A DNA stretch of 64,000 nt from Escherichia phage dhabil, in the sequence record MN850621.1. One strand, given 5' to 3'. The first letter of the stretch is position 1. Each line of letters starts with the position of its first letter. A program made the translations under genes and the position numbers. The notes under the pieces were generated by a model. That model had not been told where the DNA came from and searched no databases. It saw only the letters and a list, made by a program, of their open reading frames with translations. Shown piece after piece: positions 6,295-58,852 of this stretch.

Positions 6295-6324
6295 TTTGTT
6301 TTCTCCTCATTAGTTGGTAAGTCT

Positions 6325-6353
6325 ATACTAACACATCATGAGGAGATGTAAAC
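6325..6353 (-). promoter_or_regulatory. Early-promoter cassette
   Basis: Minus strand GTTTAC - 17 nt - TAGTAT, then leader CCAACTAATGAGGAGAA and ATG of ORF 5794..6294. Confidence 0.5.
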
Positions 6354-14328: not shown

Positions 14329-14360
14329 TTTATTTTCCTCACTCATTAGTTGATAGGTCT

Positions 14361-14389
14361 ATAGTATCATGCCTATAGACCTTGTAAAC
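14361..14389 (-). promoter_or_regulatory. Early-promoter cassette
   Basis: Minus strand GTTTAC - 17 nt - TACTAT - AGACCTATCAACTAATGAG; includes 10-bp inverted repeat 14355-14364 / 14373-14382. Confidence 0.55.
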
Positions 14390-15066: not shown

Positions 15067-15095
15067 ATAGTATCATGTTTAAAGGCATTGTAAAC
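15067..15095 (-). promoter_or_regulatory. Early-promoter cassette
   Basis: Minus strand GTTTAC - 17 nt - TACTAT - AGACCTATCAACTACATGAGGAAATAAAA - ATG. Confidence 0.55.
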
Positions 15096-15106
15096 CATTA
15101 AATGCC

Positions 15107-18304: not shown

Positions 18305-18372
18305 ATGAACCTCTGTCCAATTAGTGTAGAAGGTTATTATATCATGGCCCTGGAAGAAGTAAACACTTTGCT

Positions 18373-31591: not shown

Positions 31592-32224
31592 TTAAATTGC
31601 GTTGGTTACGGTTTTGATAACTTCAGATGATACGTTTTGGAAGTCGATATAAGTATTCTTACCACCAGTCTTAATCTTAACATCAAGACTCAAGGAAGTA
31701 AACACTTGTTTTTCTTTATCGGTCATATTATAACCGAAAATACGCATCATTCCGTCACGACGGACTTCGATTTGACGAATACCGTTGGTACGTTTAGCGA
31801 ATCGAACTTCAAGATTGCTACGGTTTTCAGCGATTTCACGAATCTCGATACGGTCTTCTAACAAAGATTTAACTTCATCAGCCAGTACCACCATTTCAGG
31901 AGTAACACCACGTGAACTGCGAGTTTTACGTTTTTCCAACATCTCTGGAGCATTTTCAGAAGCGAACAGGTCAGCAGCTTTTTGAACTAGGTCCATTGCT
32001 TCACCTGTAGCCACCAGTCCATCACCAGATTTTTCGATGAATCCTTTCTTAATCAATACACCAATGTTAGAGTTAACTACCGCAGCACTAAATTGTTCAC
32101 TCAGGGCTTCGCGGACTTCGCCTGAAGTGATGAAGTTATTCTTGATGATATGTACTAAGATAGAAGCCGTTTTTTCATTCAGGACGTCTTCAGAAGCTTT
32201 GATGATATAAGTAATTTTAGACAT
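31592..32224 (-). CDS. motA: Middle-transcription activator MotA
   Basis: 210 aa; N-terminus MSKITYIIKAS.DVLNEKTA...NSNIGVLIKKG..EKSGDGL and C-terminal RTNGIR...MRIFGY closely resemble T4 MotA. Confidence 0.8.
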   Translation of the reverse strand: MSKITYIIKASEDVLNEKTASILVHIIKNNFITSGEVREALSEQFSAAVVNSNIGVLIKKGFIEKSGDGLVATGEAMDLVQKAADLFASENAPEMLEKRKTRSSRGVTPEMVVLADEVKSLLEDRIEIREIAENRSNLEVRFAKRTNGIRQIEVRRDGMMRIFGYNMTDKEKQVFTSLSLDVKIKTGGKNTYIDFQNVSSEVIKTVTNAI

Positions 32225-32258
32225 TTTAATCTCCGATAACCATTTATTTGATAGGTCT

Positions 32259-32287
32259 ATAGTATCATGTTTAAAGCAGAAGTAAAC
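32259..32287 (-). promoter_or_regulatory. Early-promoter cassette for motA
   Basis: Minus strand GTTTAC - 17 nt - TACTAT - AGACCTATCAAATAAATGG; near-identical copy of cassette 32584..32612. Confidence 0.55.
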
Positions 32288-32295
32288 TTTATTTT

Positions 32296-32315
32296 GAGCT
32301 CTTTTCCAAGAGCTC
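32296..32315 (-). other. RNA hairpin downstream of ORF 32329..32544
   Basis: 8-bp inverted repeat GAGCTCTT / AAGAGCTC with 4-nt loop. Confidence 0.35.
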
Positions 32316-32328
32316 TGGTAAAAATTAC

Positions 32329-32544
32329 TTAGATTGATAGGTCTTTAATCTCGGCGATTAAAGCGGCTTTTCCTTCACGAAGTTTTTCCAGTTCACGACC
32401 ATTAGAGCCGCGAACTACTAAGGAATTTATCTCCACTTCCAGCCAATTTAGTTTTTCAACTAGTTCTTTACGTTTAGCATTCATACCAGGTTTAACTTTA
32501 CCGAAACGGATGGTAGCGTTTTGGGTATTTTTCATCTTATTCAT
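32329..32544 (-). CDS. Hypothetical basic protein (71 aa)
   Basis: ORF flanked by two near-identical early-promoter cassettes. Confidence 0.5.
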   Translation of the reverse strand: MNKMKNTQNATIRFGKVKPGMNAKRKELVEKLNWLEVEINSLVVRGSNGRELEKLREGKAALIAEIKDLSI

Positions 32545-32583
32545 TTTTGTATCTCCATTTCACTCTGTTGTTTTGATAGGTCT

Positions 32584-32612
32584 ATAGTATCATGTTTAAA
32601 GCAGATGTAAAT
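32584..32612 (-). promoter_or_regulatory. Early-promoter cassette (ATTTAC -35 variant)
   Basis: Minus strand ATTTAC - 17 nt - TACTAT - AGACCTATCAAAACAACAG. Confidence 0.45.
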
Positions 32613-35661: not shown

Positions 35662-35778
35662 TCAGAAGTTAAAGAATACACGTACATGGTCAATCATAAA
35701 AACTATTGGGAAAATGCTCAATACAACCAATAACACAAACATGTTCCAAATTGCTTTAAGTAAGTTTTTCATAATCAT
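35662..35778 (-). CDS. Small membrane peptide (38 aa), not in ORF track
   Basis: MIMKNLLKAIWNMFVLLVVLSIFPIVFMIDHVRVFFNF; first ORF after cassette 35799..35827. Confidence 0.35.
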   Translation of the reverse strand: MIMKNLLKAIWNMFVLLVVLSIFPIVFMIDHVRVFFNF

Positions 35779-35798
35779 CTCCATTAGTTGATAGGTCT

Positions 35799-35827
35799 AT
35801 AATATCATGTCTAATGGAGATGTAAAC
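35799..35827 (-). promoter_or_regulatory. Early-promoter cassette
   Basis: Minus strand GTTTAC - 17 nt - TATTAT - AGACCTATCAACTAATGGAG; 10-bp inverted repeat 35778-35787 / 35811-35820. Confidence 0.55.
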
Positions 35828-45818: not shown

Positions 45819-46322
45819 TTATCTCATTTCAATAAAATCTACGAGTTCAGCATGGGATTTGCGGAACATTACTTGGCGGTCACCAATGACTACCTCATCT
45901 TCAGGTATTTCGTAAACAGCAAGATAGAATCCTTTAGAAGATAATTCTTCGCGCTCTTCACGAGTGAACCAGCGCATCATATCATACTCGCTGGCAAAAG
46001 CAAAATGGTAGAGGTTAACAAACCAACCCGGAATATAATCGTCACAGTCTTCATAATCAGGTCGTTTCCACTTAGTTCTAATGGCTTTATTAGAATTTTC
46101 TACCAACAACTTATCTTGACTTGGTAGTGGGATATTTTTATTAATGCTATGATGATGTCTAAAAATAGGTCTGTCCAAACCTACTTCCAATAACCAGCCT
46201 TCACTCCATGAGTCTGTTGTACTTCTATACGGGGTCATTTGAGTACAGAGGTCTCGTCGTATTGTGATAGCGTTTCCATCATCTAAGATACTGAACGATG
46301 ACTCAACTCGATAAATTTTCAT
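45819..46322 (-). CDS. Hypothetical protein (167 aa)
   Basis: First ORF after cassette 46350..46378. Confidence 0.5.
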   Translation of the reverse strand: MKIYRVESSFSILDDGNAITIRRDLCTQMTPYRSTTDSWSEGWLLEVGLDRPIFRHHHSINKNIPLPSQDKLLVENSNKAIRTKWKRPDYEDCDDYIPGWFVNLYHFAFASEYDMMRWFTREEREELSSKGFYLAVYEIPEDEVVIGDRQVMFRKSHAELVDFIEMR

Positions 46323-46349
46323 TTTGTTCTCCTCATGTTGATAGGGTAG

Positions 46350-46378
46350 ATAATATCATGTCATGAGGAGAAGTAAAC
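46350..46378 (-). promoter_or_regulatory. Early-promoter cassette
   Basis: Minus strand GTTTAC - 17 nt - TATTAT - CTACCCTATCAACATGAGGAGAA - ATG; 11-bp inverted repeat 46327-46337 / 46362-46372. Confidence 0.55.
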
Positions 46379-46382
46379 ACTT

Positions 46383-47057
46383 TTATCGATTTTTTACACT
46401 TAATGGGTCTGGATTCTCAGGAACATCTTCTAGGTTTAAAGCATATCGTTGGGCATATTTCAGCATCAAGATATCCTTAGCACAGTCATGGATAGAGTCA
46501 TGAGCAACAAAACCATTCAATGTTCCGTTAGGCAGAGGGCACATGCTCAATCCTCGCGTCAGTGAATACGCTTCAATAGCTGTACGGATATCACGTTGGT
46601 TCCAGAATTTAACCGGTTCCAACTTGGTGGTATCGATTTCGTTCTCAGGAACACCTTCAGAACGATAAGCATCGCGAATAAGGTCCACTAAGATTGGAAA
46701 GTCAAAGGACATTCCGCGACACCACATCTGGGATTTCCATTGGTCCACTTCGTTTTTACGACAGTATTCCAGGAAATTACCAAGGCCGATAGAAGTAGTC
46801 ACATCAATTTCGGACGGAGCCAGGTTTTTACGTGCTTCAGGTCCTTGTTCTTTCCACCACTGCAATGTGCTTTTAGAGAACAGACGTTTATCACGTTGAG
46901 AAGCCAAATCGAATTTAATACGAAGGCCGCGTTGAGTAAGCTCTTCAAAAGATTCTACTACCTCTGGATTAGGGTCATAAGCAATTACGGCGAGGTCAAT
47001 AACTGCTGCATTTTGGGTAGTGGCAAAGGTTTCAAAGTCAATAATTATATCTTTCAT
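46383..47057 (-). CDS. dexA: Exonuclease A (DEDD 3'-5' exonuclease)
   Basis: 224 aa; N-terminal IIDFETF motif; position next to dda as in T4. Confidence 0.8.
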   Translation of the reverse strand: MKDIIIDFETFATTQNAAVIDLAVIAYDPNPEVVESFEELTQRGLRIKFDLASQRDKRLFSKSTLQWWKEQGPEARKNLAPSEIDVTTSIGLGNFLEYCRKNEVDQWKSQMWCRGMSFDFPILVDLIRDAYRSEGVPENEIDTTKLEPVKFWNQRDIRTAIEAYSLTRGLSMCPLPNGTLNGFVAHDSIHDCAKDILMLKYAQRYALNLEDVPENPDPLSVKNR

Positions 47058-51056: not shown

Positions 51057-51080
51057 ATGACCTCCAGTGATTTAGAGGTC

Positions 51081-51109
51081 ATTATAACATGAAGGGAGGA
51101 GGTGTAAAC
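51081..51109 (-). promoter_or_regulatory. Early promoter (canonical GTTTAC-N17-TATAAT)
   Basis: Minus strand GTTTAC - 17 nt - TATAAT; leader contains 7-bp inverted repeat 51058-51064 / 51075-51081 covering the Shine-Dalgarno. Confidence 0.55.
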
Positions 51110-52021: not shown

Positions 52022-52171
52022 TATGTTTTCCTCTTTTTAGTTTACCTACTAAAGGGCCATCCGGAATTTTATTTTCCTGGATGTATTTCTCGTTTTCTTC
52101 CATCATTTTACTACCAATTTTAAGAAGCAAATCCATTGCCTCTTTAGTACGTGCTTCAGCTTCTTCAATAG

Positions 52172-57012: not shown

Positions 57013-57330
57013 TTAGATTTCCTCACAGAAGGCCCATTCAGCGTGATAAACCGTAGCGCCTTTGGTATCATTTAAACAAACCACATCTACCGGAGCAATT
57101 ACACGATAAAGACGAGGTTCTCCTCCCACCGAACGAGCAGCTCGTCCAGCATAAATCTTAGCCAAACCAATGTCCTCAGTAAAGAACACACGATTTAGGT
57201 TTTTCTTACGACCAGTTTCAGACAGAACTCCTGTTTCCTCAGGAGGACAAAGCATATTACCAATATTAGCAACACTACAACTTCCATGATAATACACTTT
57301 ATATTCTGCTTTACAGTCGATGGTTTTCAT
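57013..57330 (-). CDS. Hypothetical protein (about 105 aa)
   Basis: ORF track start 57342 is a TTG; ATG at 57330 follows GGAG; first ORF after cassette 57355..57383. Confidence 0.5.
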   Translation of the reverse strand: MKTIDCKAEYKVYYHGSCSVANIGNMLCPPEETGVLSETGRKKNLNRVFFTEDIGLAKIYAGRAARSVGGEPRLYRVIAPVDVVCLNDTKGATVYHAEWAFCEEI

Positions 57331-57354
57331 TTTGTTCTCCAAGTTGATAGGTCT

Positions 57355-57383
57355 ATAGTATCATGCCTACAGGAGAAGTAAAC
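57355..57383 (-). promoter_or_regulatory. Early-promoter cassette
   Basis: Minus strand GTTTAC - 17 nt - TACTAT - AGACCTATCAACTTGGAGAACAAA - ATG. Confidence 0.55.
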
Positions 57384-57392
57384 CCTTAAAAC

Positions 57393-57412
57393 AAAAAAGG
57401 AGCCGAAGCTCC
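57393..57412 (-). terminator. Intrinsic terminator after gene 41
   Basis: GGAGC-CGAA-GCTCC, followed in the minus-strand RNA by UUUUUU. Confidence 0.6.
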
Positions 57413-58852
57413 TTAAAATTTGATAGATGCTGCTAAATCGTCTAAATCGCTTCTATTAACACGCGACTGGCGATTGACCTCTGCTTGGCGGTTCATTTCA
57501 CCTGTAGCCTCACGAACGGTGTTCACTGGACCTGGGTTAGAATCGTCTTCAACTTCATACCAACGCTGGTTTCCTTTCTTAACACCAATCTTAAATTTGT
57601 TGTAGTAGCTCTTATCGCCATAACGAGATTTAAGCTGCTTAACCATCTGCATACCCATCTGAGCAAACTCTTCTGTCTCGACCACACCTAACATGAAGTC
57701 TGCCGTATGTGCAATACCAAAGGATTCAGCAATATCGGCCATATCGATTTCGGCCGCAACATTCGCACCACGAGTAGTCTGGGCTGCAGTCCACAGCAAT
57801 AATTTCTTCTCTACTGCAAGGCCACGTAGTTCTTCGGCAACCATCTTAATCAATCCGTAACTGTTTTCAGAGAAAACTTTCGTACGAGATGAAGCACAGA
57901 TAGCCAAGTAGTCGACGATAACGACCTGTGGGACAAAGTTTTGTTTGAGCTTGTATTCGTTTAATAATGCACGGAATGTATCGGCATTAGCACCACCAGT
58001 AGGGTACTGTTTAATCTTTAAACGACCTAAAGTAGCAGTTGAACGCCACTTATCCATCTTAGCTTTATATTCAGGCCATGAGACGTGACCATCATCAATA
58101 TCATCCAGTGATACATCCAGAAGGTTGGCATCGATACGCTTAGCACATACTTCCTCTGCCATCTCCATGGAGATATAAAGAACATCATAACCGGATTGAA
58201 GGTAATCAGCAGCCAATGAACATAGTCCAAGAGACTTACCTACGTTTGTTCCTGCCAACAATACGTTTTCAGTACCAAACTCAGCGCCACCCTTGGTAAT
58301 CTTATTCAGAATATTAAGACGGAATGGAACCTTACGGGCTTTATCAGAATAACTTTTAAAACGTTCTTCATAGTCATCCATCCAGTCATGGCCTAATTCA
58401 GAATCGAAACAAATCGATAATGCATCGCGCATGATATCCGGAATGGCACCAATACCTGGGAGTTTTCTATTTTGTTGCTCAACCGGAAGGTCGGCATTAG
58501 TTTGAATTTCAATAATTTTTGAAGTGGCATTATACATCGCTGCCTTCTGAACATATTTCTCTGTCTCTTTAACCAACCATTCTTGGTCTTCAGGGCCTGC
58601 ATTCAGAGAATTTAAAAGCTCTTTAGCTCCTTGGTGTTCAACTTCTGAAAGGGTGCTGTTATCTAATGCAATACTCAAAGCATTTTTAGAAGGCACCGCA
58701 TTATATTCATTGACATGTTTTTTTATTTCTTTGAAAAGGGTCTTTGCCGGACCCTGGTCAAAATAAGAATCATTCATATAAGGCCAGACCTTAGTGAAAT
58801 AATCACTATTGCCTAGCAGTTGAGCCAAAATAGTTTCTACCACTTCCACCAC
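57413..58852 (-). CDS. 41: Replicative DNA helicase gp41 (DnaB-like)
   Basis: 479 aa; Walker A GTNVGKS; long colinear similarity to T4 gp41 (YISMEMAEEVCAKRIDANLLDVSLDDIDDGH, LWTAAQ). Confidence 0.9.
   Translation of the reverse strand: MVEVVETILAQLLGNSDYFTKVWPYMNDSYFDQGPAKTLFKEIKKHVNEYNAVPSKNALSIALDNSTLSEVEHQGAKELLNSLNAGPEDQEWLVKETEKYVQKAAMYNATSKIIEIQTNADLPVEQQNRKLPGIGAIPDIMRDALSICFDSELGHDWMDDYEERFKSYSDKARKVPFRLNILNKITKGGAEFGTENVLLAGTNVGKSLGLCSLAADYLQSGYDVLYISMEMAEEVCAKRIDANLLDVSLDDIDDGHVSWPEYKAKMDKWRSTATLGRLKIKQYPTGGANADTFRALLNEYKLKQNFVPQVVIVDYLAICASSRTKVFSENSYGLIKMVAEELRGLAVEKKLLLWTAAQTTRGANVAAEIDMADIAESFGIAHTADFMLGVVETEEFAQMGMQMVKQLKSRYGDKSYYNKFKIGVKKGNQRWYEVEDDSNPGPVNTVREATGEMNRQAEVNRQSRVNRSDLDDLAASIKF

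Follow-up and report, generated by a model that had tools for sequence, protein, structure and literature searches.

Several early promoters of Escherichia phage dhabil (MN850621.1) hold, within the promoter itself, a complement of the Shine-Dalgarno (SD) sequence of the downstream gene. These SD-pairing stems are probably translational insulators embedded in the promoter, which would hide the SD in read-through RNA and leave it open in the promoter's own RNA (Table 1). In the present study, we followed up a preliminary description of a 64,000-nt stretch of this genome (the window), which had proposed such read-through-specific occlusion for a number of cassettes. As a computed prediction, occlusion fits five cassettes, on the evidence of folding, covariation, conservation and the absence of an upstream terminator.

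The window belongs to a T4 relative, a JS98/JS10-like Dhakavirus (Straboviridae). The 4 kb around the motB.2 hairpin shows 94-96% identity to Escherichia phages JS10, JS98 and relatives, and the genes at this locus lie on the minus strand, with the JS10 homologous order dda, dexA.1, dexA, motB.2, motB.1 and motB. On the minus strand we catalogued 22 GTTTAC-N17/18-TAnnAT units, each followed by an SD and an open reading frame. The layout of these cassettes is GTTTAC (-35), 17-18 nt, TAnnAT (-10), a leader, the SD and ATG; TGn often directly precedes the -10, the leader is often AGACCTATCAAC, and the promoters agree with the T4 early-promoter consensus. The longest complement between spacer and downstream sequence falls at two discrete spots, the SD or the -10/+1 region. 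A stem that has an arm in the spacer or the -10 region occurs in 14 of the 22 cassettes: five have a promoter-SD stem and nine a stem from the spacer to the -10/+1 region, which leaves the SD open, and the remaining eight have no convincing stem. To call SD occlusion a systematic architecture, as was done previously, was therefore an overstatement. An Rfam scan of the whole window gave no family at the gathering score.

The leader AGACCTATCAAC is a conserved 12-nt block right after the -10, across the predicted start site, in about ten cassettes of the window. The promoter with this leader was found in IMG/VR in Dhakavirus-like genomes only (33 stretches), and several T4 early promoters have a related ACAACTATCAAC or TACCCTATCAAC. 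The block could serve as an initial transcribed sequence, enhance translation or be a patch of homology for recombination. The cassettes 32612 and 32287 (window 32222-32612) have a near-identical spacer and leader, WTCTGCTTTAAACATGA-TACTAT-AGACCTATCAA, which suggests a recent cassette duplication; the former is preceded by a terminator and the latter by a GC hairpin without a T-run.

Table 1. Early-promoter cassettes of the window and their counterparts in related phages. Cassettes are numbered by the position of the -35. The last two columns give the mean predicted unpaired probability of the SD core in promoter-initiated (own) and in read-through RNA.
Feature	Position (strand)	Elements	SD, own RNA	SD, read-through RNA
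dexA	46383-47057 (-)	stop TAA at 46383-46385, 4 nt from the -35 of the motB.2 promoter
motB.2	45819-46322 (-)	ATG at 46320-46322; hairpin within the 60-nt gap between dexA and motB.2
motB.2 early promoter, -35	46373-46378 (-)	GTTTAC; annotation by homology to JS10
motB.2 5' arm (anti-SD)	46362-46372 (-)	TTCTCCTCATG; first 11 nt of the 17-nt -35/-10 spacer
motB.2 -10	46350-46355 (-)	TATTAT, preceded by TGA (extended -10); in the hairpin loop
motB.2 transcription start	~46343 (-)	predicted from sigma-70 geometry
motB.2 3' arm	46327-46337 (-)	CATGAGGAGAA; includes SD GAGGAG	0.45	0.00
Promoter-SD class, -35 positions	6353, 18364, 35827, 46378, 51109 (-)	alc, rnh, ndd.4, motB.2, modB, respectively
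alc hairpin	6302-6346 (-)	spacer TCTCCTCAT (6338-6346) with SD ATGAGGAGA (6302-6310); 9 bp	0.82	0.00
rnh hairpin	18309-18360 (-)	ACTTCT-TCCA (18351-18360) with TGGA-C-AGAGGT (18309-18319)	0.78	0.01
ndd.4 hairpin	35776-35822 (-)	CATCTCCATTAG (35811-35822) with SD-side CTAATGGAGATG (35776-35787); 12 bp	0.62	0.00
modB hairpin	51058-51081 (-)	TGACCTC (51075-51081) with GAGGTCA (51058-51064); SD GGAGG	0.55	0.00
Cassette 57383, gene after gene 41 (weak case)	57335-57377 (-)	TTCTCC/GGAGAA; 6 bp	0.74	0.49 (same as shuffled spacers)
-10/+1 class, -35 positions	2431, 5062, 14098, 14389, 35047, 45265, 56426 (-)
-10/+1 class, weaker cases	36550, 50487 (-)
-10/+1 stem of cassette 14389	14355-14382 (-)	spacer AGGTCTATAG with CTATAGACCT across the -10/+1 region; SD left open
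AGACCTATCAAC leader, examples	14349-14360, 35788-35798
T4 motB.2		17-bp stem, one bulge, spacer through GAGGA	0.51	0.03
T4 modB		5' arm at the -10/+1 junction	0.78	0.00
T4 ndd.4		14 bp, three G·U	0.84	0.00
T4 alc		13 bp, two G·U	0.59	0.00
T4 30.8		9 bp (8 Watson-Crick and one G·U)	0.79	0.03
motB.2 arms, Dhakavirus		UUCUCCUCAUG/CAUGAGGAGAA
motB.2 arms, Tequatrovirus (T4, T6, EC128, UFV05)		17-bp stem
motB.2 arms, Mosigvirus RB69		UUCUCCUCUGGUU/AACCAGAGGAGAA
motB.2 arms, Kanagawavirus CIP9		GAUGACCUC/GGAGGUCAUC; 5' arm at the -10/+1 junction

Start sites were placed by the established geometry of sigma-70 promoters, and by this geometry the 5' arm of the motB.2 hairpin is carried only by RNA begun upstream of the motB.2 promoter. 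The read-through RNA is predicted to fold at -22 kcal/mol (z=-4.08 against dinucleotide shuffles, none of 200 being as stable), and the RNA from the predicted +1 folds at 0 kcal/mol. The motB.2 cassette (46320-46385) is 100% identical to that of JS10 over 72 nt, the surrounding 356 nt being 86.5% identical; among six Dhakavirus genomes both arms are invariant and the loop is variable. Because of this similarity, the JS10 orthologs are uninformative on covariation.

The inverted repeats themselves are real, as all six coordinate pairs that had been listed are perfect reverse complements. The pairings had been given exactly, and two of the stems extend beyond the lengths first given, to 9 bp at alc and 12 bp at ndd.4. 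Four of the pairs have the 5' arm in the spacer and the 3' arm over the SD, as was described; the exception is modB, in which the 5' arm comprises the final -10 base and the next 6 nt, outside the spacer and upstream of the predicted start (~51074). The modB spacer also contains ACCTCC, the complement of GGAGGT. The ndd.4 arm CATCTCCATTAG consists of the final -35 base and spacer sequence. The rnh stem, which was absent from the earlier list, has 10 bp, one of them G·U, and a 1-nt bulge, and it covers the SD GAGG. The cassette 57383, on the other hand, had been wrongly included as an occluding example: its 6-bp repeat (57335-57340/57372-57377) is not significant alone, and occlusion of its SD is not predicted. 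A canonical terminator (~57397-57414) lies just before this cassette, and the cassette looks recombinant because its spacer is of the TGTAG/CTACA family and its leader is not.

Two null models were used for chance complementarity, namely shuffled spacers and cross-pairings of spacers and leaders among the cassettes. With shuffled spacers, the probability of a complement of at least 9 bp was 0.0012 per cassette, and such complements were observed in 6 of 22. The cassettes' own spacer-leader pairs exceeded the cross-pairings (permutation p<5e-5 overall and 5.5e-4 for the SD region alone). Chance is excluded as the origin of the repeats, and the stems are copy-specific.

A stable helix that includes the SD is predicted in five cassettes, with 3' arms over GAGGAG, GGAG or GGAGG. 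The promoter elements place the 5' arm within the -35/-10 spacer or with its end at the predicted +1. The predicted own transcripts of these cassettes are unstructured. Folding of the two kinds of RNA agreed with the earlier expectation, the SD being unpaired at about 0 in read-through RNA versus 0.39-0.82 in promoter-proximal RNA in all five. When the spacer was shuffled, accessibility returned to 0.2-0.6 in the four cassettes with a spacer arm. In a noisy window-wide control of 78 minus-strand genes, ten SDs were predicted to be closed, and four of these belong to SD-pairing cassettes; the others are mostly doubtful start calls or helices inside translated upstream open reading frames. By this crude control, about 10% of the genes without a cassette have a predicted closed SD.

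To follow the two arms in a wider sample, we scanned IMG/VR for the conserved leader and for GTTTAC-WTCTCC-N11-TAnTAT. Both scans together gave more than 120 distinct cassettes, which lie on contigs of Dhakavirus and of other T4-like phages. Among 36 non-redundant WTCTCC...GGAG...ATG cassettes, pairing beyond the CTCC/GGAG core was bimodal, with 0-1 bp in 18 and 3-8 bp in 18; an extension of 4-8 bp past the core occurred in 17 of the 36 versus 4.5% of cross-pairs. In a gap-free alignment of 35 of these 36 cassettes, anchored at the -35 and GGAG, the covariation score was 0.199 versus 0.081 in shuffled pairings (0/500 as high; slid controls at most 0.123), and 58 cells were changed on both sides versus 30 in shuffles (0/500), although these figures and p-values are optimistic because the sequences are related and not phylogenetically independent. 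The compensatory arms (spacer/SD side) are CATTAG/CTAATG, TCATG/CATGA, TGTAG/CTACA, AGTAGTTG/CAACTACT, TCTAGTTG/CAACTAGA, TCTGGTT/AACCAGA and, with one G·U, GGTGGTT/AACCACT. In the T4 group, the sole stem changes among motB.2 variants are G·U to A-U (L108, UFV05) and G-C to G·U (L106, EC128), and thus pairing is kept on the sense strand only. Consistently, internal G·U outnumbered A·C by 39 to 15 in 75 non-independent cassettes with at least 8 Watson-Crick pairs (p=0.0015). A cruciform or a protein-binding palindrome was rejected as an explanation, since the arms differ among copies and the wobble pairs are specific to the sense strand.

Pairing of the leader block in other copies, which had also been reported, was confirmed at 14355-14382, where the spacer arm pairs with the -10/+1 region. 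Stems of this class are commoner than the SD-pairing ones and have 8-13 bp including G·U and loops of 6-10 nt; they covary between copies (GGTCTAT/ATAGGCC versus GGCTAT/ATAGCC), and their 5' arm is likewise missing from the promoter's own RNA. The SD is predicted to be open, in five or six cassettes even more so than with shuffled spacers. This class corresponds to the published stems of PeSL (promoter-early stem-loop) elements, discussed below.

Conservation was followed at orthologous genes. MotB.2 orthologs were collected by tblastn against a phage collection, and the search for related loci with MotB.2 gave the same 11 loci with a single sequence or an alignment. The motB.2 SD is predicted to be sequestered in four genera by four different arm pairs, at MotB.2 identities down to 32%. 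An SD-covering stem is present at modB in three genera, including RB69 (predicted unpaired probability 0.06), and at ndd.4 and alc in two. Folding of orthologous cassettes did not reveal an SD-covering stem in RB69 alc, RB69 30.8 or T4 rnh; thus, the stem is not obligatory for alc and rnh. Conservation is gene-dependent and strongest at motB.2 and modB. In T4, the same promoter and hairpin, AAGTCCCTCGTGTTGTGT...ACATAACATGAGGA, stand before alc and alt.-2 (-35 at 136336 and 123093), and this regulatory unit appears to have been copied whole between the loci.

One possible explanation of the repeats that assigns them no function is that they are DNA-level by-products of cassette recombination or of templated quasi-palindrome correction in replication. 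Templated perfection of imperfect palindromes does occur in T4. Moreover, the cassettes are recombination hotspots and chimeras exist (PMC2839356), and homology of the window with JS10 breaks at cassettes 51109, 35827 and 15095. Cassettes with mismatched arms (window 57328-57415, L018:165-222 and L034), for example a TGTAG-family spacer on a leader without CTACA or an ndd.4-type spacer on a CTACTGGAGG leader, look like recombinants by exchange between the -10 and the SD, which is the crossover zone reported for PeSL mini-circles; their existence indicates that stems are sometimes lost without obvious consequence. However, the same genes keep an SD-covering stem in four genera with unrelated arms, substitutions are wobble-compatible on the sense strand only, the 3' arms lie at two discrete places (the SD or -10/+1) and not anywhere, the stems anticorrelate with terminators (see below), and with loops of 24-25 nt a cruciform would extrude poorly. 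We therefore regard a functionless origin as very unlikely.

The stem-bearing cassettes also differ from the others in what lies upstream. By an automatic rule, an intrinsic terminator within 60 nt upstream was found in none of the 14 stem-bearing versus four of the eight stem-less cassettes (Fisher p=0.0096), and at a fifth stem-less cassette, 41353, an upstream terminator was recognized by eye. The canonical terminators (GC stem, UUCG-type loop and T-run) stand directly upstream of the -35 at 15095, 32612, 41353, 52951 and 57383 on the minus strand. In the stem-bearing cassettes, the stop codon of the upstream gene usually abuts or overlaps the -35, as TAGTTTAC or TAA-NN-GTTTAC; in the stem-less ones it lies 29-93 nt away, which leaves room for a terminator. 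Thus, the gene junction appears to have two alternative packings, with a stem or with a terminator. The gene after gene 41 presents both: the phages with a GGAGCTTCGGCTCC-T6 or GAGCCTTCGGGCTC-T5 terminator all have the 6-bp remnant only, and in L018, the sole contig that lacks a terminator, a 14-bp stem covers the SD. In a wider comparison the association was real (1/29 versus 7/17), but it is not independent support because all seven weak-stem cases are one orthologous locus.

This exclusivity would also be expected if the stems did the same job as terminators. In that reading, they are the terminator or attenuator part of PeSL cassettes, as proposed for RB49/phi1, and curb upstream transcription and not translation; the cassettes fit the PeSL description, and in one tested case a promoter-overlapping stem was reported to lower expression of downstream lacZ (PMC2839356). 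However, the 3' arm is followed not by a U-tract but by the A-rich GGAGAACAAAAUG, and the loops are 24-25 nt long in the Dhakavirus type. Furthermore, the 3' arm of the SD-pairing stems is fixed on the SD in all cases and all genera, an anchor that a terminator does not need, and stopping at this point would also end expression of promoterless downstream genes. A terminator scan did not call the sites of the SD-pairing stems, and as intrinsic (Rho-independent) terminators these stems were rejected on account of the missing U-tract, the long loops and the A-rich tail. We consider it quite unlikely that curbing of transcription is what the stems are for.

The proximity of the upstream stop codon raises another possibility, translational coupling, in which a ribosome that ends the upstream gene melts the outer stem over the SD core and initiation follows; read-through RNA would in this case yield the downstream protein only while the upstream gene is being translated. 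The stop that usually abuts the -35 in the stem-bearing cassettes precedes the spacer by 8-13 nt, which is close to what a terminating ribosome could reach. Only alc (8 nt) has a suitable geometry, however, as the motB.2 arm is 13 nt from the stop and the 5' arms of modB, ndd.4 and rnh are 30-142 nt from it. Coupling was rejected as a general explanation on this ground, and its probability appears to be slight even when compared with that of a functionless origin.

Occlusion of the ribosome-binding site in read-through RNA seems, on computational evidence, to be the best-supported mechanism. The anti-SD is placed inside a sigma-70-type early promoter, in the -35/-10 spacer or, for modB, at the -10/+1 junction. 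Transcription from this promoter would begin about 7 nt after the -10, so that the 5' arm is missing and the leader is predicted to be unstructured and translatable. RNA from an upstream promoter would have both arms and could form a hairpin of 9-12 bp (17 bp in T4) that covers the SD, and the cistron with the buried SD would be left untranslated. For alc, modB, motB.2, ndd.4 and rnh, the immediate-early transcript of the gene's own promoter would probably be the only source of protein, and later or longer transcripts would cross the cassette silently on their way to downstream genes. The hairpin would then be the translational equivalent of the intrinsic terminator at other cassettes. Read-through may be expected, since no intrinsic terminator is predicted in the 60 nt before the SD-pairing cassettes; from the srd promoter to motB.2, sequence prediction gave one weak terminator-like match only. 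Pattern matching (TGCTT, 13-15 nt, TAnnnT) revealed MotA-box-like middle promoter candidates at 52129, 20670, 17474, 16310 and 16225 on the minus strand, and the one at 52129, upstream of the modB/modA/srd...motB.2 series, could feed read-through transcripts.

The GGAG in read-through RNA, a putative RegB target, would probably be shielded as well, and the own immediate-early RNA would be RegB-sensitive. The hairpin may even serve mainly to shield long transcripts from cleavage by RegB (or RNase E) at intergenic GGAG, so that polycistronic mRNA stays whole, with the translational block as a side effect. RegB targets GGAG with an A-rich 7-mer after it (PMC1702504), and the 3' arms GGAGAACAAAA and GGAGAAAACAA fit this RegB/S1 target by sequence. 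Durand et al. (2006) found that RegB cleaves the SDs of T4 motB.2 (GGAU) and modB in vivo and that modB RNA forms a stable structure (PMC1702504), and structure inhibits RegB (PMC1702504, PMC3014915). A regB gene is annotated in the 94%-identical JS10, at a place outside the window. However, T4 modB RNA is still cut in vivo despite its structure, which suggests that nascent RNA may be open before it folds and that occlusion may leak. In addition, SD pairing would block ribosomes anyway, and the two effects are inseparable by sequence. Known RegB/S1 sites are, as here, SDs of early mRNA with GGAG and an A-rich tract, but they were defined on single-stranded RNA, whereas for the site in the window a double strand is predicted in one of the two kinds of transcript. 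Shielding is unlikely to be the main role of the hairpin and is better seen as a complement to occlusion than as an alternative.

In a more general form, our proposal is that the Tevenvirinae, including T4, have a conserved and previously unlisted class of elements in which a sigma-70 early promoter has an anti-SD in its spacer or across its -10/+1 junction. As translational insulators, and in concert with RegB, such elements would let long transcripts pass but allow synthesis of takeover proteins (Alc, ModB, MotB.2, Ndd.4 and others) only during the immediate-early burst, and they would be evolutionarily interchangeable with intrinsic terminators. We advance this wider statement tentatively, and give it slightly less than an even chance. 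If it is true, the split between immediate-early and delayed-early expression in T4-type phages is set partly at translation, by promoter sequence, and the promoter spacer, usually deemed free sequence, holds a second code. It would also explain how some tightly packed early genes need no terminator, give one class of PeSL stems a functional reading tied to the targeting of the same SDs by RegB, and offer a compact design rule for the insulation of genes in synthetic operons from upstream transcription. T4 motB.2, modB, alc and ndd.4 carry the same predicted design, and the proposal is directly testable in T4 at these genes.

The cassettes are PeSL elements, a link that was not made in the preliminary description. 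PeSLs were described for RB49/phi1, T4/PST and KVP40/nt-1 (Arbiol et al. 2010; Comeau et al. 2014), JS98 being mentioned in passing as having PeSL-like sequences, and their stems were read as terminators or attenuators and as recombination targets (PMC2839356). Shared features are intergenic repeats, an AT-rich upstream region, a strong early promoter, a stem-loop over or near the promoter, the SD and ATG, G·T pairs in the stems, and an association with indels and recombination; the window has the repeated promoter-SD-ATG unit, the promoter-associated stem and the link to indels and recombination. The published stems occupy five positions: upstream of the -35, over the -35, in the spacer, over the -10 and just before +1. 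Cassette 15095, in which a 6-bp inverted repeat GGCATT...AATGCC flanks the -35 hexamer (window 15090-15106), belongs to the subclass with a stem over the -35. A promoter-SD pairing that leaves the -10 in a long loop does not occur in the PeSL papers and represents here a sixth position; the words "ribosome" and "translation" are absent from these papers (Arbiol et al. 2010; Comeau et al. 2014).

The inhibitory structures in initiation regions listed in the 2010 T4 review are solely those of e, soc, 49 and I-TevI, with mobE and segB; alc, modB, motB.2 and ndd.4 are not among the hairpin-controlled genes there (PMC3014915). In T4 e, soc, 49 and I-TevI and in Aeh1 mobE, as is predicted for the cassettes studied here, the SD and/or AUG lies in a helix of transcripts from upstream promoters, and a proximal promoter starts inside the helix and yields RNA without the 5' strand, which is translated; the proximal promoter described for e and I-TevI is late (PMC3014915). 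These known cases rely on a late (gp55) internal promoter, and translation is delayed until late. In the window, by contrast, it is an early sigma-70 promoter that holds the 5' strand, either in the spacer or at the -10/+1 junction, and an opposite effect is predicted, with translation limited to the earliest transcripts. A similar arrangement is said to exist in bacteria, where Davis, Simons and Kleckner in 1985 reportedly described fold-back inhibition in IS10/Tn10 of the translation of transposase from external-promoter transcripts. There, as is proposed here, transcripts from outside are longer at the 5' end by a segment that can pair with the ribosome-binding site, and the element's own promoter starts inside that segment, which makes an insulator against outside transcription; IS10 is, however, a bacterial insertion sequence with a single gene, whereas we find a series of phage promoters. 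According to the best-supported reading, what is new here is the promoter-in-hairpin logic of the T4 type with an early, and not a late, internal promoter.
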